A stretch of DNA of 64,000 nt from Pyrinomonadaceae bacterium (GCA_036401595.1 DASWUM010000020.1:4784-68783); one strand, 5' to 3'; shown: positions 1,918 through 59,993, counted from the stretch's first letter. Notes: generated from the sequence alone by a model not told the origin. Translations and numbers: made by a program.

Positions 1918-2616
1918 CTAAAATAAGAACGGTATCATCCGCCATTTAACTCTCTTCACATAATCGTTGTAGCCCTCGAGCTCTTGTTTGAGCATCGCTT
2001 CTTCGCCGATGCTGCGAACGGCAATCGTGACGATCAAAACGAGGCCCATGATCAAACCAAATACAGAACCCAACAGGAGCGGACTGGCGACAAACATTAG
2101 GACGGCGCCGGCGTACATCGGATGACGGACCACTCCGTACAATCCGTTTGAGATCACTTTCTGACCTCGTTCCTTCTGCATCTTCACGACGGGTGCTGCG
2201 AAAGTGTTTTCCCTGAGCGCCTCGAAGATTAGTGCGATCGAGACGACGAGCAACACAGTTCCCGCTGCTCGGAGCCAGAATGGAAACGCGGGGCTCCAGC
2301 CGAATCGTTTGGCGTCGAGCGGCATAATCGCAAACCAGACAAGGAAGTCAACAAAGAAGATTGACAGCAACACCTTGTCCCAGCTCTTCTGGGTCGGCTG
2401 TATCGGTGAGCCATACCGTTCCTTCAGCAGTGCCGGATCGTAGAAATAGAGGTATAGAAGTGTGGAGAAACACATCAGCAGGAAGATGATCGAGAACAGC
2501 CAGCCCTCGATCCAGCGCCAGTCACCGGCCAGGACAAACAGGATCACCGGGAAGAACACGAGATAAACAAAACTCCAAACCAGTTTCGAGACCGGAAAAG
2601 GGACATTCGTCGTCAT
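1918..2616 (-). CDS. isoprenylcysteine carboxyl methyltransferase (ICMT)/phospholipid methyltransferase family membrane protein
   Basis: C-terminal motif NGLYGVVRHPMYAGAVLMF plus multiple TM helices. I start the gene at MTTNVPFPVSKLVW (cat at 2614-2616). The track's longer N-terminus (to 2817) is read-through of the GC-hairpin repeat (peptides GRPRRAAPT and VGAALRGRP). Confidence 0.75.
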   Translation of the reverse strand: MTTNVPFPVSKLVWSFVYLVFFPVILFVLAGDWRWIEGWLFSIIFLLMCFSTLLYLYFYDPALLKERYGSPIQPTQKSWDKVLLSIFFVDFLVWFAIMPLDAKRFGWSPAFPFWLRAAGTVLLVVSIALIFEALRENTFAAPVVKMQKERGQKVISNGLYGVVRHPMYAGAVLMFVASPLLLGSVFGLIMGLVLIVTIAVRSIGEEAMLKQELEGYNDYVKRVKWRMIPFLF

Positions 2617-2641
2617 AACCTGAGAAAATACAGTATTCACA

Positions 2642-2775
2642 GAACGTACTGTAGGGGCGGCCCTCCGTGGCCGCCCTCGGTTGAAAATCGGGTTCGCCAA
2701 ACCCCGAGACCGCTGCTTCTTGAATCCCGTAACCAACCAAGGGCGGCCACGGAGGGCCGCCCCTACAGTACGTTC
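2642..2775. repeat. MITE-like element: perfect 35-bp terminal inverted repeat (2642-2676 / 2741-2775) around a 64-nt core; each arm is itself a GC hairpin
   Basis: Arm 1 is aagcgtactgtaggggcggccctccgtggccgccc, wait-free reading: cgtactgtaggggcggccctccgtggccgccc (2645-2676). Arm 2 is gggcggccacggagggccgcccctacagtacg (2741-2772), its exact reverse complement, and the match extends 3 nt further on each side. Inside each arm GGGCGGCC-ctccgt-GGCCGCCC folds on itself. A solo copy lies at 59961-59993. Confidence 0.9.
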
Positions 2776-2796
2776 CATCGCGCCTGAGAAATTTCT

Positions 2797-2809
2797 TGTA
2801 ACTTTTGCC
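2797..2809 (+). promoter_or_regulatory. candidate ECF-type -35 element shared by both sigma-factor genes (TGTAACTTTTGCC)
   Basis: tgtaacttttgcc lies 35 nt upstream of the ATG at 2844. The paralogous sigma gene has tgaaacttttcgcc at 20304-20317. AAC-containing -35 boxes are typical of autoregulated ECF promoters. I could not identify a convincing -10 element. Confidence 0.3.
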
Positions 2810-2843
2810 GAACTCACGTGTTTTAGGAGACGTAGCGCAGCTT

Positions 2844-3386
2844 ATGGCGAGCGAAGACGCAGAGTTCACCATGCTGTTTCAGGATTTCTACCCTAGCCTA
2901 TGCCGCTTTCTGGAGTGTTTATTGGGAGGCCGCGCGCCGCTGGCGCAGGATTTGGCACAGGAGAGTTTCCTGCAACTGCATCGCACGGCATGGGGAACTA
3001 TGCCGGTCGGTGAGGCGCGCTTCTGGCTCTATCGCGTCGCGCGCAACATGGCGATCAACGAGTTTCGCAAATCGCACACGCGCTACCGGCTGTTTGATCG
3101 AGTGGTCGAAGTCATGAGCCCACGAGCACGCAACCCGGAACAGGAATACGAAACACAGGAGCGGAAAACGCTGGTGCTGGAAATGTTACAGACTTTGCCT
3201 GAAGACCAACGCACCGCGCTGCTGCTGAGAGAGCAGGAACAGTTGAGCTATCGCGAGATTGGACAAGTACTGAACGTCTCCGAAAGCAAAGTGAAGGTCG
3301 ACATTTTTCGCGCGCGAGCATCGCTGCGAGAACGTTGGAACAAGGTGTCAGGGCTTTCAAGATACGCAGGAGTTGGAAACTCGTAA
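2844..3386 (+). CDS. ECF (extracytoplasmic function) sigma-70 family RNA polymerase sigma factor, module 1
   Basis: Region 2 (FQDFYPSLCRFLECLL...AQDLAQESFLQLHR) and region 4 HTH (LPEDQRTALLLREQEQLSYREIGQVLNVSESKVKVDIFRARASLRE). I prefer ATG 2844 over the track's TTG at 2805. Confidence 0.9.
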   Translation: MASEDAEFTMLFQDFYPSLCRFLECLLGGRAPLAQDLAQESFLQLHRTAWGTMPVGEARFWLYRVARNMAINEFRKSHTRYRLFDRVVEVMSPRARNPEQEYETQERKTLVLEMLQTLPEDQRTALLLREQEQLSYREIGQVLNVSESKVKVDIFRARASLRERWNKVSGLSRYAGVGNS

Positions 3387-3388
3387 AT

Positions 3389-4342
3389 ATGAACTGCAGC
3401 TTTACCGAAAAAATCTCGTCACTGATCGATGGTGAGTTAACAGCGGCTGAGGCACGCGAAGTCGAACGCCACCTGATTGGCTGTAATGACTGCCAGCAAC
3501 TGCGCGCTGACTTTCTCAGTCTTCGCACACAGATCGCCGGCTACGAAACGTCGTTGCAGCCCGCAGTTCAGAAACGTGCGTTGAAGAAGATCCTCGGCAC
3601 CGAACGCCCTGTTCCCGCGCGCCGGTTGGGTTGGAGTTTTGGTCCATCGGCAATCGCTTTCGCAACGCTCGTGATCGCGGCTGCAGTCATCGGTTTGCTC
3701 TTCTATCAGAGCTCAAAGAAGAGCGAAGGAGAATCACAACGGGTAGCACAGCAGACACAAAGTCCTTCTCCCGTGCCATCCGGTTCAGGCGAGCAAAGCA
3801 GGCAACAACCGCAAGCCACTCCCGAACCCGGTCGCGAACAACCACAACCGTCGCCGAATAAAGGTAACGACGAAACGCCGCGACGTCAGCCATCGAAGAA
3901 GATCGTCCGCGAACCGAAACCAGGCGAACAGTTTGCTGTGGTTCCCGCTCCGGTTCAGCCCGCCGAAACGCAGACGATTCGCTCCGCCGACGCGCAGACG
4001 TTGACTGCCATGCACTTCGAAAAATCGGAAACGCTGTTGCTCGCGTTCCGCAATGTGCGTCTTAACGAGCCGGGAGCAGCGAAGGAAGTGGGTTACGAAC
4101 GAAAGCGCGCCCAACAGCTCGTTCTGCAAAACATGATGCTGCGTCGCGAGGCTGATGCCGGCGGCGACGTGCAGATTTCATCGCTGCTCGAAAGTCTTGA
4201 GCCGATACTGATCGATATCGCAAATCTTCCCGACCGCCCGGACGAAAACGCAGTGCGCGTGATTCGCCAGCGTGTCGAACGCAAAAACATCGTCCCGCTC
4301 TTGCGGGTTAACTCCACCGCGCTGGCCCGCGCGTTGGACTAA
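3389..4342 (+). CDS. anti-sigma factor, zf-HC2 type, single-pass membrane protein with Pro/Gln-rich linker and conserved C-terminal domain, module 1
   Basis: MNCSFTEKISSLIDGELTAAEAREVERHLIGCNDCQQL carries the H-x3-C-x2-C zinc motif. TM segment is AIAFATLVIAAAVIGLLFY. The start lies 2 nt after the sigma stop. The C-terminus LLESLEPILIDIANLPDRPDENAVRVIRQRVERKNIV is conserved in the paralogue at 20929-21831. Confidence 0.85.
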   Translation: MNCSFTEKISSLIDGELTAAEAREVERHLIGCNDCQQLRADFLSLRTQIAGYETSLQPAVQKRALKKILGTERPVPARRLGWSFGPSAIAFATLVIAAAVIGLLFYQSSKKSEGESQRVAQQTQSPSPVPSGSGEQSRQQPQATPEPGREQPQPSPNKGNDETPRRQPSKKIVREPKPGEQFAVVPAPVQPAETQTIRSADAQTLTAMHFEKSETLLLAFRNVRLNEPGAAKEVGYERKRAQQLVLQNMMLRREADAGGDVQISSLLESLEPILIDIANLPDRPDENAVRVIRQRVERKNIVPLLRVNSTALARALD

Positions 4343-4360
4343 ACGGTTCTTTTAACTCAG

Positions 4361-4466
4361 CGGTTTCACCTCAGAGACACAGGGAACAGAGATGCTATCT
4401 GCGTTTTTGATCACCGCTCGATCTCTGCGCTCGCTCTCAGGTTCTCTGTGTCTGTGCGGTGAACCG
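4361..4466. repeat. about 105-bp imperfect palindromic intergenic repeat (CACAGAG/ATCTGCG heptamer type) inside the module-1 operon
   Basis: The left arm cggtttcacctcagagacacagggaacagag pairs with the right arm ctcaggttctctgtgtctgtgcggtgaaccg. It sits between the anti-sigma stop (4342) and the HEAT gene start (4512). The paralogous junction (21831/21843) has no such insert. Confidence 0.85.
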
Positions 4467-4511
4467 AGTAATGGTTAGAAATATTTATTTGATTAAGGAC
4501 AACAAATCATC

Positions 4512-6020
4512 ATGAAGCAACTGGTTCGTTTTCGCCCCCAAGTCAGAATCGGAGTAGTGCTGCTGGCCATCGCGAGTGCCATCACGTTCTCCGCGATTTA
4601 TGCGCAGCGCAGTTACGGTTTCGACCAGGATCTCGGTAAGCTCAACCGCTTCGTCCAGAACAAAGGAAACACCGCCTCGATGCAGATCTTCCGCGAAGGC
4701 CGCGATCTCATCGAAGCGCAGAACTGGCAGCGAGCGGCTGAAAAATTCAACGACTTCATCAAGGGTTACCCAAAAGATAAAGATCTCGACGCCGCACTTT
4801 ATTGGTATGGCTACGCGTTGCAAAAACAGGATCGAAAAGAGGATGCACGCAAACCACTCGTCGTGCTGATCAACCGATTTCCAAGCTCGAGTTGGCGCGA
4901 GGAAGCAAAGGCCCTGCTCGTCGTGCTCGGCTACAAGGCCGACGTGGACCAGGCGCTCACTAATGAAAATTGCGAGATCAAGATGCTCGCCTTGCAGAGT
5001 CTCTTCCAGGCCGATCAAGAAAGGGCCATCACCATCGCCACCGAAGCCATCAAAGCAAATCCGCAACAATGTCCGGGTTTCCCGGCAGCGGCAGTATCAA
5101 TGCTCGGATCTCATGCCGGCTCGAGAGCCATTCCACTTCTCGTCGATATTGCGCGGACCAACCCCGATCAAAAACTTCGGCTCACTGCCATCAAGCGTTT
5201 AGGCGAACAGCGCTCGGATCAGGTAACCGACGCGCTCATCCAAATCTTCGACGCCGATCGGACCAGAGAAATCCGAGCGCAGATATTGCGCGCGTTGGTT
5301 GAAAGCCGCTCGCCTCGCGGTAGCGCTAAAGTGCTCGAAATCGCTCGCGCCAGTGATGACGTCGCCCTCCGTGTATATGCCATCCGTTTCATCGGCGAGC
5401 TCGAAGACTCCGCATCGCTTGACGAGTTGATTCGTATCTACGATGCCGACAAAACCAGAGAAATTCGGGCGCAGATACTGCGCGCACTCGCCGAGCGCGA
5501 GGACCAGCGCGCACGTACCAAGCTCTTCGAAATCGCACGGCAGGGCGACTCACCGGAAATGCGGCTCGAAGCAATTCGCCGTCTCGGCGATCATCAACGC
5601 ATTTCGCTCGACGATCTGATGCAGCTCTATACGAGCGAATCAAATCTGCAAATCAAACAGGGACTGTTACGCGCGTTTGCAGACAACAACGATCCACGCG
5701 CACAGGCGAAATTGTTTGAGATCGCTCGCGGCAACGACCCGGTTGAGCTGCGCGGTTATGCAATTCGACAGCTCGGCGAGAAGGATGACGAGCCGACTGT
5801 CAATCAGCTCGTGTCGATGTACGATTCAGAGCAAAACCCACAAATGAAAATGTCGTTGATGCGTGCATTTGGCGATTCGAAGCAGAAAGTTGCTGTTCGC
5901 AAATTGATGTTGATCGCCCGCAACGATCCGTCAGTGGAAATGCGCAAGATAGCGGTCAGGTATCTGGGCGAGAGCAAAGATCCTGAAGCCCTGAAATTTC
6001 TTGAAGACCTTCTGAAATAA
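4512..6020 (+). CDS. exported HEAT-repeat protein with N-terminal YbgF/BamD-like TPR segment, module 1
   Basis: Signal/anchor VRIGVVLLAIASAITFSAIYAQ. TPR-like segment DAALYWYGYALQKQDRKEDARKPLVVLINRFPSSSWREEA. Then about 6 copies of a 60-64-aa unit (L..IYDADKTREIRAQILRAL.....R...KLFEIAR..D.E.R..AIR.LG). Confidence 0.8.
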   Translation: MKQLVRFRPQVRIGVVLLAIASAITFSAIYAQRSYGFDQDLGKLNRFVQNKGNTASMQIFREGRDLIEAQNWQRAAEKFNDFIKGYPKDKDLDAALYWYGYALQKQDRKEDARKPLVVLINRFPSSSWREEAKALLVVLGYKADVDQALTNENCEIKMLALQSLFQADQERAITIATEAIKANPQQCPGFPAAAVSMLGSHAGSRAIPLLVDIARTNPDQKLRLTAIKRLGEQRSDQVTDALIQIFDADRTREIRAQILRALVESRSPRGSAKVLEIARASDDVALRVYAIRFIGELEDSASLDELIRIYDADKTREIRAQILRALAEREDQRARTKLFEIARQGDSPEMRLEAIRRLGDHQRISLDDLMQLYTSESNLQIKQGLLRAFADNNDPRAQAKLFEIARGNDPVELRGYAIRQLGEKDDEPTVNQLVSMYDSEQNPQMKMSLMRAFGDSKQKVAVRKLMLIARNDPSVEMRKIAVRYLGESKDPEALKFLEDLLK

Positions 6021-6034
6021 GGCCGATCAATCCG

Positions 6035-6073
6035 TCCACAGATTACACAGATTTCGTCTGCGTAATCTGTGGA
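6035..6073. repeat. hairpin repeat (CACAGAT type) between the two HEAT genes of module 1
   Basis: tccacagattacacag-atttcgt-ctgcgtaatctgtgga forms a 16-bp stem with one mismatch and a 7-nt loop. There is no T-run after it. Confidence 0.85.
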
Positions 6074-6091
6074 TTCACTCGGAGGAATTCC

Positions 6092-7678
6092 ATGCGTTAT
6101 TCAATGCTTCTCTTCCTGGCGATTATCGGCATTGCTTGTGCCGGTGGAAATCACAGCGCCCCTGTTACGACAGTCGCGGCCGCGGCTGCCGACGATCTGA
6201 AAACGCAGTCGCCCGACACCACGATACAAGGTTTTACTGCGGTGGAAGGCGCCGATCTCATGGCTCGTCTCGAGGCCGCACAATCGCGTGCACGCTCGCG
6301 TCAAACGCCTTACTGGTCGGCCTACACTTTTGACGTGCGACCAGGCATCGCTGTCGATCCTGCTATCCGTGAGTTTCATGGATCGATGAACACGATGGGC
6401 GACACGGTCGTGTTTGTCGGCACAAATTCAGCCGGCGTGACAGTGGAAACACGAAGTCTCGCGATCTTTCTGCTGCGTGAACCGGCGAGTAACCAAATCA
6501 CGCGCCTGGAGGTTTACAACCTCGAACGCAAACGTGAGTACAGCGGCTATCCCGTCTACTGGCTCGGCCGTGCGAACAACGAGGAAAGTCTCAACTACAT
6601 GCGCGCGCTTGCGGCAGCCTCGCCGCTCGATATGTTGAGCGAACGTGCGGTTCTCGGCATCGCGTTGCATGACGACGCTCGAGTCGCCGGTATGCTCAAG
6701 GGATTCGTCACCAGTTCGCCAAATCAGCGCATTCGTTCGAGCTCGGTTTACTGGCTAGGCCAGGTCGGCGGCGAAACGACATTCCTCGCGGGGCTCGTTC
6801 GCAGCGACACCGAAGACAAGAAGATCAGGCGCTCGGCAGCCCACGCGATTGGACAAAGTCGCGAGCGTGGAACAATACCGACCCTCCAGGGACTCTACGA
6901 GAGCGTGAAGGATGCCGAGATTCGTAGAAGTGTGATCTCAGCGGCCGGTAACAGTCTCGATGAACAGCCGGCCTGGACATTTCTGCTCGGTATCTCGAAG
7001 AACGATGCTGATTGGGAATCGCGCCGGACCGCTGTGCGTCAACTCGGAGATTTCAAGCGCGACGACACGGCCGACGAGTTGATGAAGATTTACAACAACG
7101 ACGCCAACATCGAGGTGAAGCGCGCCGCGTTGCGTTCGCTTGCCGAAACTAAGAATCCGCGTGGTCAGGCGCGTCTGCTCGAGATCGCGCGCACCGAAAC
7201 TAATCCTGAATTACGAAAGTCAGCGATTCGTGTGATGAGCGATCGCGGCGAAGCGGCAGTTGAGGATCTGCTGAAGTTGTTTGATTCGGAACAGTCGGCG
7301 GATGTCAGACGCTCAATTCTGCAAACGCTTTCGGACATCAAGAGCACGCGCGTCGAAGACAAGTTGTTTGAAGTTGCGAAGGGTAACGACACGCTCGACG
7401 TGCGGCGGCAGGCGATTCGACTACTCGGCGAACGCGCGAGCAAACGCAGCTTCGAGTTTCTGAGTGAGACTGCGCAGAGTAATGATGGAAATGCGGAAGT
7501 GCAGGTGCAGGCCGTGCGTGCGATCAGTGAGCGACGCGCCGAGGAATCCGTGCCGCTGCTGATCAAGATTGCGCGGACGCATCCGAATCAGCTCGTGCGC
7601 AAACAGGCAATTCGTTCGCTCGGCGAGTCGGGCGATCCGCGCGCGGTCGATTTCTTCAGGGAAGTGTTAACGAAATAA
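6092..7678 (+). CDS. exported protein with uncharacterised N-terminal domain plus C-terminal HEAT repeats, module 1
   Basis: Signal peptide MRYSMLLFLAIIGIACAGG. N-domain motifs YTFDVRPGIAVD and EVYNLERKREYSGYPVYWLGRANNEESLNYM are shared with 23460-24608. The HEAT units have the same type as in 4512-6020. Confidence 0.8.
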   Translation: MRYSMLLFLAIIGIACAGGNHSAPVTTVAAAAADDLKTQSPDTTIQGFTAVEGADLMARLEAAQSRARSRQTPYWSAYTFDVRPGIAVDPAIREFHGSMNTMGDTVVFVGTNSAGVTVETRSLAIFLLREPASNQITRLEVYNLERKREYSGYPVYWLGRANNEESLNYMRALAAASPLDMLSERAVLGIALHDDARVAGMLKGFVTSSPNQRIRSSSVYWLGQVGGETTFLAGLVRSDTEDKKIRRSAAHAIGQSRERGTIPTLQGLYESVKDAEIRRSVISAAGNSLDEQPAWTFLLGISKNDADWESRRTAVRQLGDFKRDDTADELMKIYNNDANIEVKRAALRSLAETKNPRGQARLLEIARTETNPELRKSAIRVMSDRGEAAVEDLLKLFDSEQSADVRRSILQTLSDIKSTRVEDKLFEVAKGNDTLDVRRQAIRLLGERASKRSFEFLSETAQSNDGNAEVQVQAVRAISERRAEESVPLLIKIARTHPNQLVRKQAIRSLGESGDPRAVDFFREVLTK

Positions 7679-7734
7679 GCCGCAGATGAACGCAGATCTT
7701 CGCAGATCTGCGTTCATCCGTTAAATCCGCGGCT
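7679..7734. repeat. palindromic intergenic repeat (CGCAGAT type) between convergent genes; likely bidirectional terminator
   Basis: gatgaacgcagatc (7685-7698), ttcgca, gatctgcgttcatc (7705-7718) form a perfect 14-bp stem. Outer arms gccgc / gcggc extend it. The element overlaps the TAG stop of the minus-strand gene at 7733-7735. Confidence 0.85.
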
Positions 7735-20303: not shown

Positions 20304-20317
20304 TGAAACTTTTCGCC
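20304..20317 (+). promoter_or_regulatory. candidate ECF-type -35 element (TGAAACTTTTCGCC), paralogue of 2797-2809
   Basis: It shares TG(T/A)AACTTTT(C)GCC with the module-1 upstream region and lies 32 nt upstream of the ATG at 20349. Confidence 0.3.
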
Positions 20318-20348
20318 CTCGCCCTGCACTAACCTACCGAGAGAGACG

Positions 20349-20939
20349 ATGAGTGCATTCGCGGGAACTCTGATGAACAGTTCAGCAGACCTTGTCACTC
20401 GCGTATGCCAGGGTGACGCCGAAGCCTTTCGTCTGATTTTTGAAAGGTATTCGCGGCCCGTCATCAGTTTCATCTATGACATGGTTAACGACCGCGGGCT
20501 GGCCGAAGAGCTGACGCAGGAGACTTTCGTCCGCGCTTTCCGTGCGATTCATACGATGCGCACGGAAACGAAACTCTCCACCTGGCTCTTCGGCATCGCG
20601 CGAAACGTCGCGCGCGAATCGCTTCGGGCACGCGCCCGCGCCAACAGTCACGTCGATCTCGCGGATAAATCGGTTATGGATTTGAGCGACAACAAACCGG
20701 TGCCAGTCGATGGATTGCTGAGCAAGGAGTTGAACGAACTGATCCGGCGCTCCCTCGCCGCACTCGACGAAGACAAGCGGCTGGTATTCACGCTCAAGGT
20801 GCTGCACCAATGCAGTTACGAAGAGATTGCAACGATCACGGGGTTTTCAATGGCAAAGTTGAAGACTGATTTGCATCGCGCTCGCGCCGAGATGAGAAAG
20901 CGAATCAGTCCCTACGCTGGAGTTGGTTATGAAGTGTGA
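20349..20939 (+). CDS. ECF sigma-70 family RNA polymerase sigma factor, module 2
   Basis: Region 2 is FRLIFERYSRPVISFIYDMVNDRGLAEELTQETFVRAF. Region 4 is LDEDKRLVFTLKVLHQCSYEEIATITGFSMAKLKTDLHRARAEMRK. Confidence 0.9.
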   Translation: MSAFAGTLMNSSADLVTRVCQGDAEAFRLIFERYSRPVISFIYDMVNDRGLAEELTQETFVRAFRAIHTMRTETKLSTWLFGIARNVARESLRARARANSHVDLADKSVMDLSDNKPVPVDGLLSKELNELIRRSLAALDEDKRLVFTLKVLHQCSYEEIATITGFSMAKLKTDLHRARAEMRKRISPYAGVGYEV

Positions 20940-21831
20940 AGTTTGTTTAGAGTCTTTGGAAGAATATCTCGACGGCGAACTCGCCGCGGAGACGAGCGAG
21001 CAGATCGATGCACATTTGATTACGTGCAGCGAATGCTCGACGAGTTTTGCAACGCTCAACGCGGAACAGGAGATCTTCGCGCGTTACGATCGTGAGATCG
21101 AAGTATCGCCGTTCATGTGGACCAGGGTCGCGGCCCACACGGTTTCCGAAAGCAATATCGCAAAACGCGGTTGGTTGGCGACTCTTATTAGAAGACCATC
21201 GCTCGCAAGTGCTATCGCACTGTCGCTGATCGTGGCTTTAATCGGAGGCGTTTACTTTTTAACGAAGCATAAATCTCCCGATTCAACCATAGCGACGACT
21301 CCTTCACAGATCCCAAGCCCAAATCCGGTTCGTGAATCCGTCCAATCCGCGGCCCCTAAACGTGAAGTGATCGCATCGCAAAAGAAACAGGCATCCCGAG
21401 TTCAACCGCCGGTCGTCGTTCACGTACCAACTGATCAATCCGATGTGTTGTCATCTGACACTGGCTATCTCGATATCGACGATCAGGACACCGCCAAGCA
21501 CATCGAACAAACTCAGATTCTTTTGCGCTCGATCAAGAACGTCGCCATCGCTGACGGCGACGACGAAATCGACGTCACTTACGACAAAGCACTCTCGCGT
21601 CGCCTGCTGAATGAAAACGTCGTGCTCCGGCGCGACGCCGAGATGAAGGCAAAATTTCCTACTAAAACGTTGCTCGCCGATCTGGAGCCATTCCTGATCG
21701 ACATCGCAAACCTGCCCGACCACGCGAAGGCTGAAGATGTGCGTGTGATCAAGGAGCGGGTGCAAAAAACCGAGATTGTAGCGGCATTAGTCGACTATCA
21801 GGACCGGGGCACAATCATCGTCAAAGAATAG
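20929..21831 (+). CDS. anti-sigma factor, zf-HC2 type, module 2
   Basis: MKCEVCLESLEEYLDGELAAETSEQIDAHLITCSECSTSF carries the H-x3-C-x2-C motif. TM segment is ASAIALSLIVALIGGVYFL. The C-terminus LLADLEPFLIDIANLPDHAKAEDVRVIKERVQKTEIV is paralogous to module 1. ATG 20929 (RBS ggag at 20918-20921) overlaps the sigma gene by 11 nt. The track start at 20923 is TTG. Confidence 0.85.
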   Translation: MKCEVCLESLEEYLDGELAAETSEQIDAHLITCSECSTSFATLNAEQEIFARYDREIEVSPFMWTRVAAHTVSESNIAKRGWLATLIRRPSLASAIALSLIVALIGGVYFLTKHKSPDSTIATTPSQIPSPNPVRESVQSAAPKREVIASQKKQASRVQPPVVVHVPTDQSDVLSSDTGYLDIDDQDTAKHIEQTQILLRSIKNVAIADGDDEIDVTYDKALSRRLLNENVVLRRDAEMKAKFPTKTLLADLEPFLIDIANLPDHAKAEDVRVIKERVQKTEIVAALVDYQDRGTIIVKE

Positions 21832-21842
21832 AGGCTAAATCC

Positions 21843-23426
21843 ATGTTGAAGAACCTTACAGCGAATACGGCAACCGCAATGACGCGCGCCCGGTTTGTAC
21901 TGATCACTCTCTTAATCACCTTGATGGCTGGTGTAGCCAGTGCGCAGGGGCAGCGCGCCGCCTCCCAATCAAGTTCGGCAAGTTCGGCAAGTTCGTCCAA
22001 CCGCAATCAAAGCGACGCCACTACAGTGTTTCGCAGCGCGCGTGACCTTATCACCGACGGTGAGTGGGCCAAGGCTCAGGCGGAGTTTGATAAGTACGTA
22101 AATCAATATCCGAACGAGAAGAACGTCGACGCCGCGCTCTACTGGCTCGCCTACACGCAACAGCGATTGGCTGAGTATGACCGAGCCCGCACGACGCTCG
22201 AGCGCCTGCTGGAAAAGTATCCCAACACCGCGTGGAAAGACGACGCGCGCGTCCTCTTGGCCCAGGTGCCGGGTTATGCAGCAAAAGCAGCAGCCTCCGA
22301 TGAACTGCTTCAGCAATTAAGAGTCGCCACCACCATTACACCGAAATTTGAAAGCGCTTATGTTCTTGCTCCCGGTGCACCGGTAGACGTAACACCTGCC
22401 CAGGCTCAAGCAATTGCAAAGACAGTTTGGTCTGTCGATGAAGCCAGTAACTCGGCCGACGATGACGATCCGTGTGAATTCAAGATCGTCGTGTTGCAAG
22501 CCCTGTTTCAAACCGATGTCCAGCGCGGCATCATGGCCGCGACTGAATGGCTCAAGCCAGGTTCGACGCAAACCGTGCGTTGCAAAGGCGCCGCATTGGC
22601 TCTGCTCGGCCGCAACGGCGGCAAGTCAGTGACGCCAGTATTACTCGGCGTAGCGCGCAGTGAACCGGATCTGAAACTGCGAGCGCGTGCAATCTCCGCA
22701 CTCGGCGCCAGCAACGACGACAGCGTTGTCGATGCACTCCGTGACTTCGCCCTCAATTCACCGGAAAACGATATCGTCGAAGCATCGCTCTACGCCTTGA
22801 GTAGACACACCGGCGAACGTGCGATCGCAGTGCTGAGCGATATCGCAATCAGCGGTAAGACAACTCCGCAACGAAAGCTCGCCATCTCGAGCATTGCGAC
22901 TCGACCTGGCGAACCTGCTGTCGACGCGCTACTGCGGATTTATGACGCAGATCAGACTGTGGAGATTCGCCGCACCGTTATCTCCGGCTTCGGAAATCGC
23001 AAGAGTGAACGAGCAGGCGCCAAACTCTTCGACATCGCGCGCGGCTCAGACACTATCGAACTTCGCAAAGCAGCCATTAGTGCGATTTCGCGACGCGGCG
23101 GAGACAAGGCAATCGAGTTTCTGCTCAGTCTGTACGACACCGAGAAGAACGAGGAGTTGAGAGATCAGATTATTAGTGCGCTGGGTTACGGCAGCAACGT
23201 GTACGTCACCACTCCTGTGGCAGTTGGCTCAGGACAAGGTCTCGGCTACGGCGTGGGCAGCGGCAGTTCAAATAGCAGGATGAATGACCAGCGTGTGATT
23301 CAGAAATTTATCGAGATCGCGCGGGATCAGAAGGCTCCGATGGAACGCCGCAAACGCGCCATCGGCTGGCTGAGCCGCAGTAAAGATCCCTCAGTGCTTA
23401 AGTTTCTTGAGGACTTGTTGAAATAA
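21843..23426 (+). CDS. exported HEAT-repeat protein with N-terminal YbgF/BamD-like TPR segment, module 2
   Basis: DAALYWLAYTQQRLAEYDRARTTLERLLEKYPNTAWKDDA is paralogous to 4512-6020. HEAT units include LRIYDADQTVEIRRTVISGF...KLFDIARGSDTIELRKAAISAI. It has the same C-terminal tail, KDPSVLKFLEDLLK versus KDPEALKFLEDLLK. Confidence 0.8.
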   Translation: MLKNLTANTATAMTRARFVLITLLITLMAGVASAQGQRAASQSSSASSASSSNRNQSDATTVFRSARDLITDGEWAKAQAEFDKYVNQYPNEKNVDAALYWLAYTQQRLAEYDRARTTLERLLEKYPNTAWKDDARVLLAQVPGYAAKAAASDELLQQLRVATTITPKFESAYVLAPGAPVDVTPAQAQAIAKTVWSVDEASNSADDDDPCEFKIVVLQALFQTDVQRGIMAATEWLKPGSTQTVRCKGAALALLGRNGGKSVTPVLLGVARSEPDLKLRARAISALGASNDDSVVDALRDFALNSPENDIVEASLYALSRHTGERAIAVLSDIAISGKTTPQRKLAISSIATRPGEPAVDALLRIYDADQTVEIRRTVISGFGNRKSERAGAKLFDIARGSDTIELRKAAISAISRRGGDKAIEFLLSLYDTEKNEELRDQIISALGYGSNVYVTTPVAVGSGQGLGYGVGSGSSNSRMNDQRVIQKFIEIARDQKAPMERRKRAIGWLSRSKDPSVLKFLEDLLK

Positions 23427-23459
23427 ATGGCAGCCACGAAACGTCTAAGGATCAGGATT

Positions 23460-24608
23460 ATGATTCGAAGAAACATAATCTCAGTAGTAATCGTTCTGGC
23501 TTTAAGCGCCGTTGCATTAGGGCAAACCAGGAACTTTACGCCCGTAGACGGCGCCAATCTCAAGGCCAAAATCGACGGCGCCATCATCGCCGGCAAGGCG
23601 AATACACCAAATGGTCGATTTTGGATCGGTTATCAATTCGAAGTTCGACCCGGTGTCGCGATAGATTTTGAGTTAGTCGACAGTGCCGGCGGTGTTTATA
23701 TGTCGATGGACGGAACCTCCATGATGTTCGATCCGCGTCACGAAACACGAGAACTCGGGCTGTTTCTGCTCTACGACACACAGAACGACTCATTCACGCG
23801 AGCAGAAGTCTACAATCTGCGCCGCAATCGCGAATTCAGCAGCTATCCCGTCTACTGGGCCGGACACATCACGAACGAAGAGAGCTTGAACTATCTGAAG
23901 TCGATCGTGGATTCGCCTGCGCCGGAGATAAACCGGCTCTCCGAACGCGCAACGTTCGCCATTGCCCTGCACGACGATGCGCGCGTCGATCCGATACTCA
24001 TGGAAATGGTCCGCAGACCAGTCGCCGATCCGATGCGCTCGCGAGCCATTTACTGGCTTGGGAACACCGGTGAGAGTGCGGCCAAAAATACTTTCTTCAC
24101 CGAGATCGTTCGTAACAACCAGGAAAGCACTGAGGCTCGTAACTCGGCGATGTCGGGGCTGGCAATGAGCCGCTCGGCCGCCACCCTCCCGCTTCTGCAG
24201 AACCTGTTTGAGACGATGACCACGCGGGAATTGAAGCGCCGCGCCCTCGGCGGCATGGCTCGGAACGACAACAGCGATGCTGCGGCAACGTACCTCATCA
24301 GAGTTGCCGAAACTGAAAAGGATCTCGAGTTGCGCAAGAGCGCCATCTCGAGTCTCGGGCGTATTGCAGGTCAAAAAAGTCTAGGAGCCCTAACTAACAC
24401 TCTCGACAACGATGTCGATCTCGAAATCCAGAAGCAGGCAGTAATTGTCATTGGACGTCGTGCGAAAGATGAAGCAATCCCAATTCTGATTCGCACAGCC
24501 CGGAACCATCCAAAAATGCCCGTCCGAAAACTGGCCATTCAGATGCTCGGACAAACTGGAGATGAACGCGCCGTCGCGTTCTTCAGAGAACTTTTGAGCA
24601 AGGATTAA
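23460..24608 (+). CDS. exported protein with uncharacterised N-terminal domain plus HEAT repeats, module 2
   Basis: YQFEVRPGVAID and EVYNLRRNREFSSYPVYWAGHITNEESLNYL are paralogous to 6092-7678. I prefer the start MIRRNIISVVIVLALSAVALGQ at 23460 (RBS aagga at 23446-23450). ATG 23427 is an alternative. Confidence 0.8.
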   Translation: MIRRNIISVVIVLALSAVALGQTRNFTPVDGANLKAKIDGAIIAGKANTPNGRFWIGYQFEVRPGVAIDFELVDSAGGVYMSMDGTSMMFDPRHETRELGLFLLYDTQNDSFTRAEVYNLRRNREFSSYPVYWAGHITNEESLNYLKSIVDSPAPEINRLSERATFAIALHDDARVDPILMEMVRRPVADPMRSRAIYWLGNTGESAAKNTFFTEIVRNNQESTEARNSAMSGLAMSRSAATLPLLQNLFETMTTRELKRRALGGMARNDNSDAAATYLIRVAETEKDLELRKSAISSLGRIAGQKSLGALTNTLDNDVDLEIQKQAVIVIGRRAKDEAIPILIRTARNHPKMPVRKLAIQMLGQTGDERAVAFFRELLSKD

Positions 24609-53332: not shown

Positions 53333-53409
53333 TGGTAGCGCATACGGGACTCGAACCCGTGGTCTCTGCCTTGAGAGGGCAGCGTGTTAGCCGACTACAC
53401 CAATGCGCC
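53333..53409 (-). tRNA. tRNA-Glu (anticodon CUC), CCA encoded
   Basis: The reverse complement GGCGCAT-TG-GTGT-AGTCGGCTA-ACAC-G-CTGCC-CTCTCAA-GGCAG-AGACC-ACGGG-TTCGAGT-CCCGT-ATGCGCT-A-CCA folds into a 77-nt cloverleaf. The anticodon loop is C-T-CTC-A-A. Confidence 0.9.
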
Positions 53410-59960: not shown

Positions 59961-59993
59961 CGTACTGTAGGGGCGGCCCTCCGTGGCCGCCCC
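59961..59993. repeat. solo copy of the GC-hairpin element arm seen at 2645-2676
   Basis: cgtactgtaggggcggccctccgtggccgcccc is identical over 32 nt to arm 1 of the 2642-2775 element. It forms a 9-bp GC stem, GGGGCGGCC/GGCCGCCCC. It lies 18 nt downstream of the stop of the gene at 60011-60535. Confidence 0.9.

Follow-up and report, generated by a model that had tools for sequence, protein, structure and literature searches.

What do two exported HEAT-repeat proteins do behind a sigma factor and its antagonist? Extracytoplasmic function (ECF) sigma factors paired with anti-sigma factors are among the most abundant bacterial signaling devices, and the input of most of their groups is unknown. The Acidobacteriota, abundant in soils, are almost unstudied genetically. 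We analyzed 64,000 nucleotides from a Pyrinomonadaceae bacterium (GCA_036401595.1, DASWUM010000020.1:4784-68783), here called the window, in whose numbering positions are given. At 2797-7720 it carries an operon in which genes for an ECF sigma factor and an anti-sigma factor are followed by genes for two exported HEAT-repeat proteins, HEAT-A and HEAT-B. We lean, with slightly better than even confidence, toward an autoregulated ECF operon in which the two HEAT proteins act as periplasmic receptor or co-regulator, that is, on the input side of the pathway. The four open reading frames (ORFs) of this module, copy 1, run in the same direction:

2844-3386, plus strand: ECF sigma gene, 180 amino acids (aa), ATG start, regions 2 and 4 only
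3389-4342, plus strand: anti-sigma gene, after a 2-nt gap
4512-6020, plus strand: HEAT-A gene, 502 aa, after a 169-nt gap
6092-7678, plus strand: HEAT-B gene, after a 71-nt gap

This layout agrees with a first-pass annotation of the same DNA, which had described four co-directional genes separated by 2 to 170 nt, and Pfam matches confirm the protein types it had named: an ECF sigma factor, a zf-HC2 anti-sigma factor and two HEAT-repeat proteins. By titling the module "copy 1" it had also implied another, which is indeed present:

20349-24608, plus strand: copy-2 module, with sigma at 20349-20939, anti-sigma at 20929-21831, HEAT-A2 at 21843-23426 and HEAT-B2 at 23427-24608

Copy 2 has the same gene order and is matched by all four hidden Markov models (HMMs) built for the module. 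Identity between the copies is 31% for sigma, 27% for anti-sigma, 30% for HEAT-A and 33% for HEAT-B, and we read the two as old paralogues, not as the products of a recent duplication. In the HMM scan of the window the sigma and HEAT protein families occurred in copies 1 and 2 only, and the rest of the window held no further sigma, anti-sigma or HEAT genes of the module families.

The same arrangement recurs well beyond this genome. A genome scan with the HEAT-B N-terminal domain yielded 351 loci, the best 80 of which come from Pyrinomonadaceae/Acidobacteriota metagenome-assembled genomes (MAGs) at 72-94% identity. Among these 80, the full order of sigma, anti-sigma C-terminal domain, tetratricopeptide repeat (TPR) segment and HEAT-B was found in 53 of the 53 loci with at least 3.9 kb of upstream DNA; the remaining 27 are ended upstream by a contig edge. 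A metagenome scan seeded with distant N-domains (42-68% identity to the seed, with two loci carrying the seed itself) returned the full module in 29 of 32 loci with enough upstream DNA. Complete four-part modules that are still more distant occur in loci L081 and L082 (about 25-33% identity), L165 and L166, the last of these in an Aminicenantes MAG and including the 63-aa repeat described below. On one metagenome contig (L088, 3844-12600) two complete modules stand head to tail. The order is kept in orthologues, paralogues and distant loci, and with the tandem modules this shows four genes that duplicate and diverge together. Comparison of orthologues, of old paralogues and of two Acidobacteriota classes marks the module as a real, old and conserved unit. 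Counted from the HEAT-B side, the synteny with two HEAT genes that the first-pass annotation had proposed to check holds across the Acidobacteriota loci compared.

HEAT-B is also found with partners other than sigma factors. In all four distinct loci of one type (L083/L084, L167, L168 and L169, from Blastocatellia), genes for a BlaI/Penicillinase_R repressor and a Peptidase_M56 protein are followed, in third place, by one for a member of a HEAT-B subfamily of about 277 aa. The linked Peptidase_M56 proteins are 930-984 aa long and carry a transmembrane (TM) helix, a Pro-rich linker and a HEAT array behind the protease domain; in one representative, P0240, the M56, N-domain and HEAT parts form a single chain. 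The C-terminal extracytoplasmic domain of BlaR1 is its sensor, and in these BlaR1-type relatives that position of the M56 protease is taken by the HEAT array. The window itself holds no M56 or BlaI gene detectable by HMM scan. In the three exceptions of the metagenome scan, HEAT-B follows two MacB_PCD/FtsX permeases:

L091, 2006-8056: MacB/FtsX-linked locus, permease pair, about 800 aa each
L135, 801-5640: MacB/FtsX-linked locus, permease pair, about 800 aa each
L149, 34-6157: MacB/FtsX-linked locus, permease pair, about 800 aa each

Permeases of this kind also flank L165 (8503-10273) and L167 (1-1502), making them a possible third partner system of HEAT-B. Two domains follow the sigma factor strictly: the anti-sigma C-domain and the HEAT-A TPR segment are both present in every sigma-linked module, and neither occurs in the BlaR1- or MacB-linked ones.

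The sigma factors of both copies (196 aa in copy 2) match Pfam Sigma70_r2 and Sigma70_r4_2 as well as NCBIfam TIGR02937 (93 bits in copy 1 and 99 in copy 2, against a cut-off of 42.9), by which they are classed as ECF (group IV) sigma-70 factors. The solved ECFs nearest to the copy-1 sigma factor score only about 50 bits, RpoE and AlgU lying at about 46-52 bits. No NCBIfam equivalog cut-off was reached by any of the four copy-1 proteins; sigma reached no subfamily cut-off either and matched a superfamily model only. Each sigma gene is preceded by a predicted promoter:

2797-2826, plus strand: putative copy-1 ECF-type promoter, TGTAAC TTTT-N12-TGTTTTAG, 47 nt before the sigma ATG
20304-20340, plus strand: putative copy-2 ECF-type promoter, TGAAAC TTTT-N12-GCACTAAC, 45 nt before the ATG

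About 50 nt ahead of the copy-1 sigma ATG are near-invariant in 56 orthologous loci (consensus TGTAACTTTT-N12-TGTTTTAG), and the DNA farther upstream is unalignable. The sigma factor likely starts at ATG 2844 rather than at the in-frame TTG 2805, because the TTG falls within this conserved non-coding promoter motif. The pattern TG[TA]AACTTTT has two sites in the 64 kb, 2797 and 20304, where 0.28 are expected, and the longer form TGTAAC-N16-TGTTTTAG has no other site in the window even when up to three mismatches are allowed. In 67 loci TGTAAC-N16-TGTTTT occurs exactly once per locus, each time ahead of sigma. Loci of the copy-2 type (L134, L141, L153, L156 and L162) carry TGAAAC(C)TTT(T)-N11-12-CACT[ATC]AC, and the downstream promoter element of such modules differs from that of copy 1. 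The classical ECF -35 element, recognized for example by sigma-X and sigma-W of Bacillus subtilis and sigma-E of Escherichia coli, is a TGTAAC or TGAAAC with T's behind it; because of this likeness we infer that both motifs are autoregulated ECF promoters, each specific to its paralogue. No second ECF-type promoter of the sigma type was found before the HEAT genes. One candidate for such a promoter, GGGAAC-N16-TTTTTGAT in the gap between anti-sigma and HEAT-A, was set aside, since the spacer ranges from 14 to 18 nt in the orthologues and the -10-like part shifts in one clade without a matching change in the sigma promoter.

The anti-sigma factor has four parts:

3389-3568, plus strand: cytoplasmic zf-HC2 domain, with C3 and H28-x3-C32-x2-C35
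3632-3715, plus strand: predicted TM helix, aa 82-109, the sole hydrophobic segment (Kyte-Doolittle mean 2.5 over 19 aa)
3716-3973, plus strand: Pro/Gln/Ser-rich linker, aa 110-195, from the composition of the translation
3974-4342, plus strand: extracytoplasmic C-domain, aa 196-317, a predicted five-helix bundle

The zf-HC2 family (PF13490, cut-off 22.2) is matched at 36.4 bits in copy 1 (E 5.6e-9) and at 32.4 bits in copy 2, and the H-x3-C-x2-C motif can be read by eye as HLIGCNDC and HLITCSEC, respectively. The protein is thus assigned to class I, with a predicted zinc-binding anti-sigma (ZAS) domain, and the first-pass description of a HxxxCxxC zinc finger, a single TM helix, a Pro/Gln-rich linker and an extracytoplasmic C-domain stands in every part. 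The paralogues cannot be aligned across the linker, where blastp opens gaps. The C-domain is homologous in copy 2, L081/L082, L165 and L166. Its AlphaFold model is confident (predicted local distance difference test, pLDDT, 93.4; five helices), and comparison with the PDB returned nothing significant by fold (best E 0.25, to generic helical bundles) and no match by sequence; the best PDB sequence matches of the anti-sigma factor were likewise nonsignificant. The best 120 of 424 homologues of the C-domain are close relatives, and many of these public gene calls for the anti-sigma factor (P0342-P0439) are 113-aa fragments beginning at a Met inside the C-domain. Gene callers seem to be misled by the low-complexity Pro/Gln linker, and the anti-sigma family is therefore probably underannotated.

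Each of the HEAT proteins has one hydrophobic segment, at its N terminus, in keeping with the signal peptides assigned to both in the first pass. HEAT-A begins with a predicted signal peptide (aa 1-31, ..IYA/Q), followed by the TPR segment at about aa 55-140 and then by the HEAT array; its cleavage site, like those of A2 and B2, is of the AxA type. HEAT-B divides as follows:

6092-6139, plus strand: lipoprotein-type signal peptide, ..IIGIA-C16, by pattern match
6233-6718, plus strand: N-domain, aa 48-209, modeled with one helix, seven beta-strands and the first solenoid helices
6719-7678, plus strand: HEAT array, aa 210-528, Pfam HEAT_2 E 1.3e-48

A lipobox-like G[IVL]AC was found, by pattern match alone, in 57 of 74 distinct HEAT-B orthologue N termini; the lipobox Cys is absent from HEAT-B2. 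Pfam HEAT_2 (cut-off 27.7) matches HEAT-A at 110 bits (E 5.5e-32), HEAT-B at 164, A2 at 87 and B2 at 77, so that all are classed as HEAT-repeat proteins. The common repeat of 60-64 aa noted in the first pass resolves into a 63-aa double-HEAT unit, which HEAT-A contains four times in full (aa 242-494, with 103-111 bits per copy) and HEAT-B four times in weaker form (aa 267-520); it is also recognizable in the paralogues, and no DNA-level tandem repeat was found behind it. Phycobilin lyase or NblB (CpcE/CpcF) function was considered and rejected, given NF045915 scores of 59-72 bits against a cut-off of 300 and the export signals; the similarity to NblB and CpcE/F is a generic HEAT likeness, far under the cut-off.

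The TPR segment of HEAT-A, which had been called YbgF/BamD-like, passes TPR_6 at 36 bits (cut-off 26.3). The YfiO family (PF13525, cut-off 25) is matched at 20.5 in copy 1 and 29.4 in copy 2, and two narrower models score far lower than their cut-offs (TIGR02795, tol_pal_ybgF, 44 and 48 bits against 90.1; TIGR03302, 26 and 35 against 81.4). By these scores the segment carries the TPR_6 repeat and falls outside the CpoB/YbgF and BamD/YfiO families, PF13525 in copy 2 being the one cut-off reached.

No Pfam family matches the first ~210 aa of HEAT-B, where an uncharacterized domain of about 200 aa had been proposed. The proposal is upheld: the motifs F.VRPG and YNL.R..EYSGYPVYW.G are invariant or near-invariant columns of a real family, whose profile collects 725 clusters (50% identity) at E<=1e-3, and 99 at E<=1e-30, among 1.84 billion representatives. 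Where the sources are named, they are Pyrinomonadaceae, Blastocatellia and one Candidatus Aminicenantes; a profile search with distant N-domains gave at least 59 matches. The AlphaFold model has a pLDDT of 91.7 and no PDB match by fold (best E 0.04, TM-score <0.2); the domain has no PDB match by sequence.

At L165 (6001-8218) HEAT-A reads on into the HEAT-B N-domain, the junction lacking a signal peptide, and both HEAT-B and the adjoining FtsX gene are split; the locus contains either a true fusion combined with frameshift errors or a decaying copy.

The gap between anti-sigma and HEAT-A contains one further conserved feature:

4365-4463, plus strand: structured intergenic element, 99 nt, a candidate cis-acting RNA, inside the gap 4343-4511

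The 169-nt gap folds at -60.3 kcal/mol (z -4.5), and in most copy-1 orthologues a gap of about 160 nt has a likewise stable fold. The invariant core of the element, TCACCGCTCGATC, occurs once in the window. About 62 of the 80 Pyrinomonadaceae loci and 3 metagenome loci have it at the equivalent site and in the same orientation; a minus-strand copy is present in L027, L055 and L078, and in L055 it is the sole one. The RNAalifold consensus comprises a 21-bp outer helix and two short inner helices. We compared the helices of 59 distinct sequences with versions in which the partners were slid by 1-3 columns. For the outer helix 95.5% of cells are paired as given against 33-58% when slid; 7 pairs are changed on both sides against at most 4, and 20 cells against at most 4. 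The structure also outscores nearly all shuffles. Many of its pairs are G-U, and because several positions are G-U in many sequences, a sense-strand RNA fits better than a DNA cruciform. The element has no Rfam match, even at E<=1, and an intrinsic terminator was rejected, as no U-run follows the helix. Copy 2, with a 12-nt gap between anti-sigma and HEAT-A, is without it. We regard it as a candidate for a new cis-acting RNA, which possibly acts in processing or stability and so adjusts HEAT expression relative to that of sigma and anti-sigma, or serves as a protein-binding site. In L082, a distant and otherwise intact module, the corresponding gap is interrupted by a Y1_Tnp (IS200-type) transposase gene at 5219-5506.

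In the account that we favor, the sigma factor would be held at the membrane by the class I zinc-finger, single-pass anti-sigma factor, which would extend its long Pro/Gln-rich tether and five-helix bundle into the periplasm. There HEAT-A (soluble, TPR plus HEAT) and HEAT-B (a putative lipoprotein, beta-rich N-domain plus HEAT) would serve as receptor or co-regulator of the bundle. An envelope-derived ligand or partner protein would bind the surfaces of the HEAT arrays or the N-domain and so alter the contact of the HEAT proteins with the bundle. The anti-sigma factor would then lose its activity, most likely through regulated proteolysis of the RseA/RseB kind, and the freed sigma factor would transcribe its own operon from TGTAAC-N16-TGTTTTAG. 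The protein contacts, the direction of the signal and the proteolysis are steps that we infer. The bundle and the HEAT-A TPR segment probably dock noncovalently; they suggest themselves as a docking pair because they are jointly present in the sigma version and absent from the fused one. Where the HEAT array is fused to the transducer, as in the BlaR1-type relatives, the covalent link would take the place of this contact.

The strongest argument for placing the HEAT proteins on the input side is that the BlaR1-type relatives carry the HEAT array at the sensor position and keep the HEAT-B partner. The run-through from HEAT-A into the HEAT-B N-domain in L165 would point the same way; we have down-weighted A-B fusions as Rosetta-stone evidence, since the L165 genes are frameshifted. 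The first-pass annotation had suggested the HEAT proteins as an input or partner-switch component: the conserved unit, the single promoter and the re-use with BlaR1 favor the former, and a strict partner switch of the PhyR/NepR kind finds no support.

Several observations weigh against an input role. Genes behind sigma/anti-sigma pairs are often members of the regulon and not regulators, and an operon would duplicate as a unit under an input or an output role alike. The locus contains no site-1 or site-2 protease gene, the synteny counts begin from the HEAT-B side only, and a sigma relative without HEAT neighbors exists (L162, minus strand). Frameshifts are visible in the assemblies that yielded the A-B fusions (L165). 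HEAT-B also stands behind MacB/FtsX permeases with no regulator in view, which fits a more general role as periplasmic partner or scaffold. An output role would make the HEAT proteins envelope scaffolds or chaperones induced by the sigma factor, with the anti-sigma factor itself sensing stress through its five-helix bundle, and we consider this possible though unlikely. The HEAT genes lie downstream of the predicted autoregulated promoter and would rise with sigma activity, and the TPR segment resembles CpoB/YbgF, BamD and PorW, all components of envelope machines; the MacB/FtsX loci, with no regulator nearby, would suit such a role, and the structured RNA element could give the HEAT cistrons an expression level of their own. 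It is harder to reconcile with a HEAT array that lies covalently within the transducer, at the sensor position, in the BlaR1-type relatives, with the private HEAT-A/HEAT-B pair retained by each old paralogue, or with the perfect co-occurrence of the anti-sigma C-domain and the HEAT-A TPR segment.

A narrower role, in which HEAT-A and HEAT-B merely shield the periplasmic domain of the anti-sigma factor from a site-1 protease, as RseB does, and the signal is sensed elsewhere, for example by the protease, seems to us improbable. The gene order is that generally known from rpoE-rseA-rseB. The ECF reclassification (PMC7826278) treats an RseA/RseB/RseC context as defining group ECF02. The HEAT proteins carry predicted export signals. 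They have, however, no sequence or fold similarity to RseB, and the re-use of the HEAT module as a BlaR1 sensor domain argues for a sensing role, although nothing computed separates shielding from the input account that we prefer. That two unrelated gene pairs are neighbors by chance is very improbable and is already contradicted by the conservation data: the 169-nt gap with its strong hairpin between anti-sigma and HEAT-A might suggest such a boundary, but over 80 loci, and paralogues of ~30% identity, share gene order and content while the flanks differ, and the gap element is itself conserved in place.

At its downstream end, the operon is followed by a hairpin that likely marks its end:

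7683-7720, strand not assigned: palindromic hairpin of 17 bp, from a terminator scan, between the convergent HEAT-B and dienelactone-hydrolase genes

This palindrome (CGGATGAACGCAGATCT...) resembles a sequence upstream of the sigma promoter in L049 (GCGGATGAACGCAGATC ... TCTGCGTTCATCCGCGGCT), a resemblance suggesting that these genomes contain a second family of short palindromic repeats. At the other end, an inverted repeat (2642-2683 / 2734-2775; 42-nt arms, 98% complementary, 50-nt loop, -108 kcal/mol, z -12) sits between a PEMT/ICMT-like methyltransferase gene and the copy-1 sigma promoter. One arm, GTACTGTAGGGGCGGCCCTCCGTGGCCGCCC, is found once more about 57 kb off, at 59962-59992, and may be a dispersed repeat of the repetitive extragenic palindromic (REP) or miniature inverted-repeat transposable element (MITE) kind. 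The longest ORF of the methyltransferase (1918-2817, minus strand, GTG start) crosses both this repeat and the sigma promoter, and the true start is probably an internal Met near MTTNVPF. The single Rfam match in the window is a tRNA gene (53336-53409, minus strand).

Our findings describe a form of ECF sigma/anti-sigma signaling that comprises two new domain families, has a parallel version linked to BlaR1 and includes a conserved RNA structure lacking annotation; we found no published description of it. Full-text searches on ECF/anti-sigma factors with HEAT repeats, on BlaR1 with HEAT repeats and on Blastocatellia returned none, and the main text of the ECF reclassification (Casas-Pastor et al. 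2021, PMC7826278) gives no HEAT context; the first-pass remark that no ECF system of this composition had been described agrees with these sources. More broadly, the HEAT array together with HEAT-B may be a portable periplasmic receptor, plugged into at least two and perhaps three membrane chassis in Acidobacteriota: a ZAS-type anti-sigma factor (noncovalently, by way of bundle and TPR), a BlaR1-type M56 protein (covalently) and possibly MacB/FtsX. This would be a new sensor class made from HEAT solenoids, with a cis-acting RNA tuning the HEAT cistrons in copy 1, and we offer it tentatively, as a serious possibility. If the input account that we favor is right, the locus would represent a new ECF regulatory architecture, its two new domain families having confident models without a solved relative, and the connection of one periplasmic HEAT module to transducers as unrelated as an anti-sigma factor and a BlaR1-type protease would amount to a natural experiment on the exchange of sensor modules. 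It would also supply concrete parts, in the form of promoter motifs, domain boundaries and a candidate docking pair, with cultured Blastocatellia as possible hosts should they have the module.

Among known systems, the closest in plan are rpoE-rseA-rseB-rseC of E. coli (sigma-E; ECF02) and algU-mucA-mucB of Pseudomonas, in which, as predicted here, an autoregulated ECF sigma factor is followed in its operon by a single-pass anti-sigma factor and one or more periplasmic accessory proteins; the putative -35 element is likewise of the AAC-TT type. The parts differ. Unlike RseA, whose N- and C-domains it lacks, the anti-sigma factor described here has a zf-HC2 domain and a predicted five-helix periplasmic bundle, and unlike the RseB/MucB fold, its accessory proteins are TPR/HEAT solenoids with a new beta-rich domain; RseA and RseB families were absent from the Pfam and NCBIfam matches and from the PDB neighbors of the N-domain and C-domain models. 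With the ZAS anti-sigma factors RsrA, RslA, ChrR and RsiW it shares the N-terminal H-x3-C-x2-C domain and only that zf-HC2 part; in contrast to the soluble, redox-sensing RsrA, the domain is here anchored by a membrane helix and joined to a periplasmic bundle that represents a new family. HEAT-A has a periplasmic TPR segment of the TPR_6 type in common with CpoB/YbgF and BamD/YfiO, and differs from them in lacking a coiled-coil trimerization domain or a lipobox and in its fusion to a long HEAT array. The BlaI/BlaR1 (MecI/MecR1) systems offer a parallel three-part logic, which in Blastocatellia runs from regulator to transducer to HEAT-B. The sensor domain of staphylococcal BlaR1 is a penicillin-binding fold and not a HEAT array. 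In the sigma-linked module, unlike BlaR1, an anti-sigma factor takes the role of transducer, and HEAT-A, its HEAT array extended by a TPR segment, is encoded as a protein of its own.

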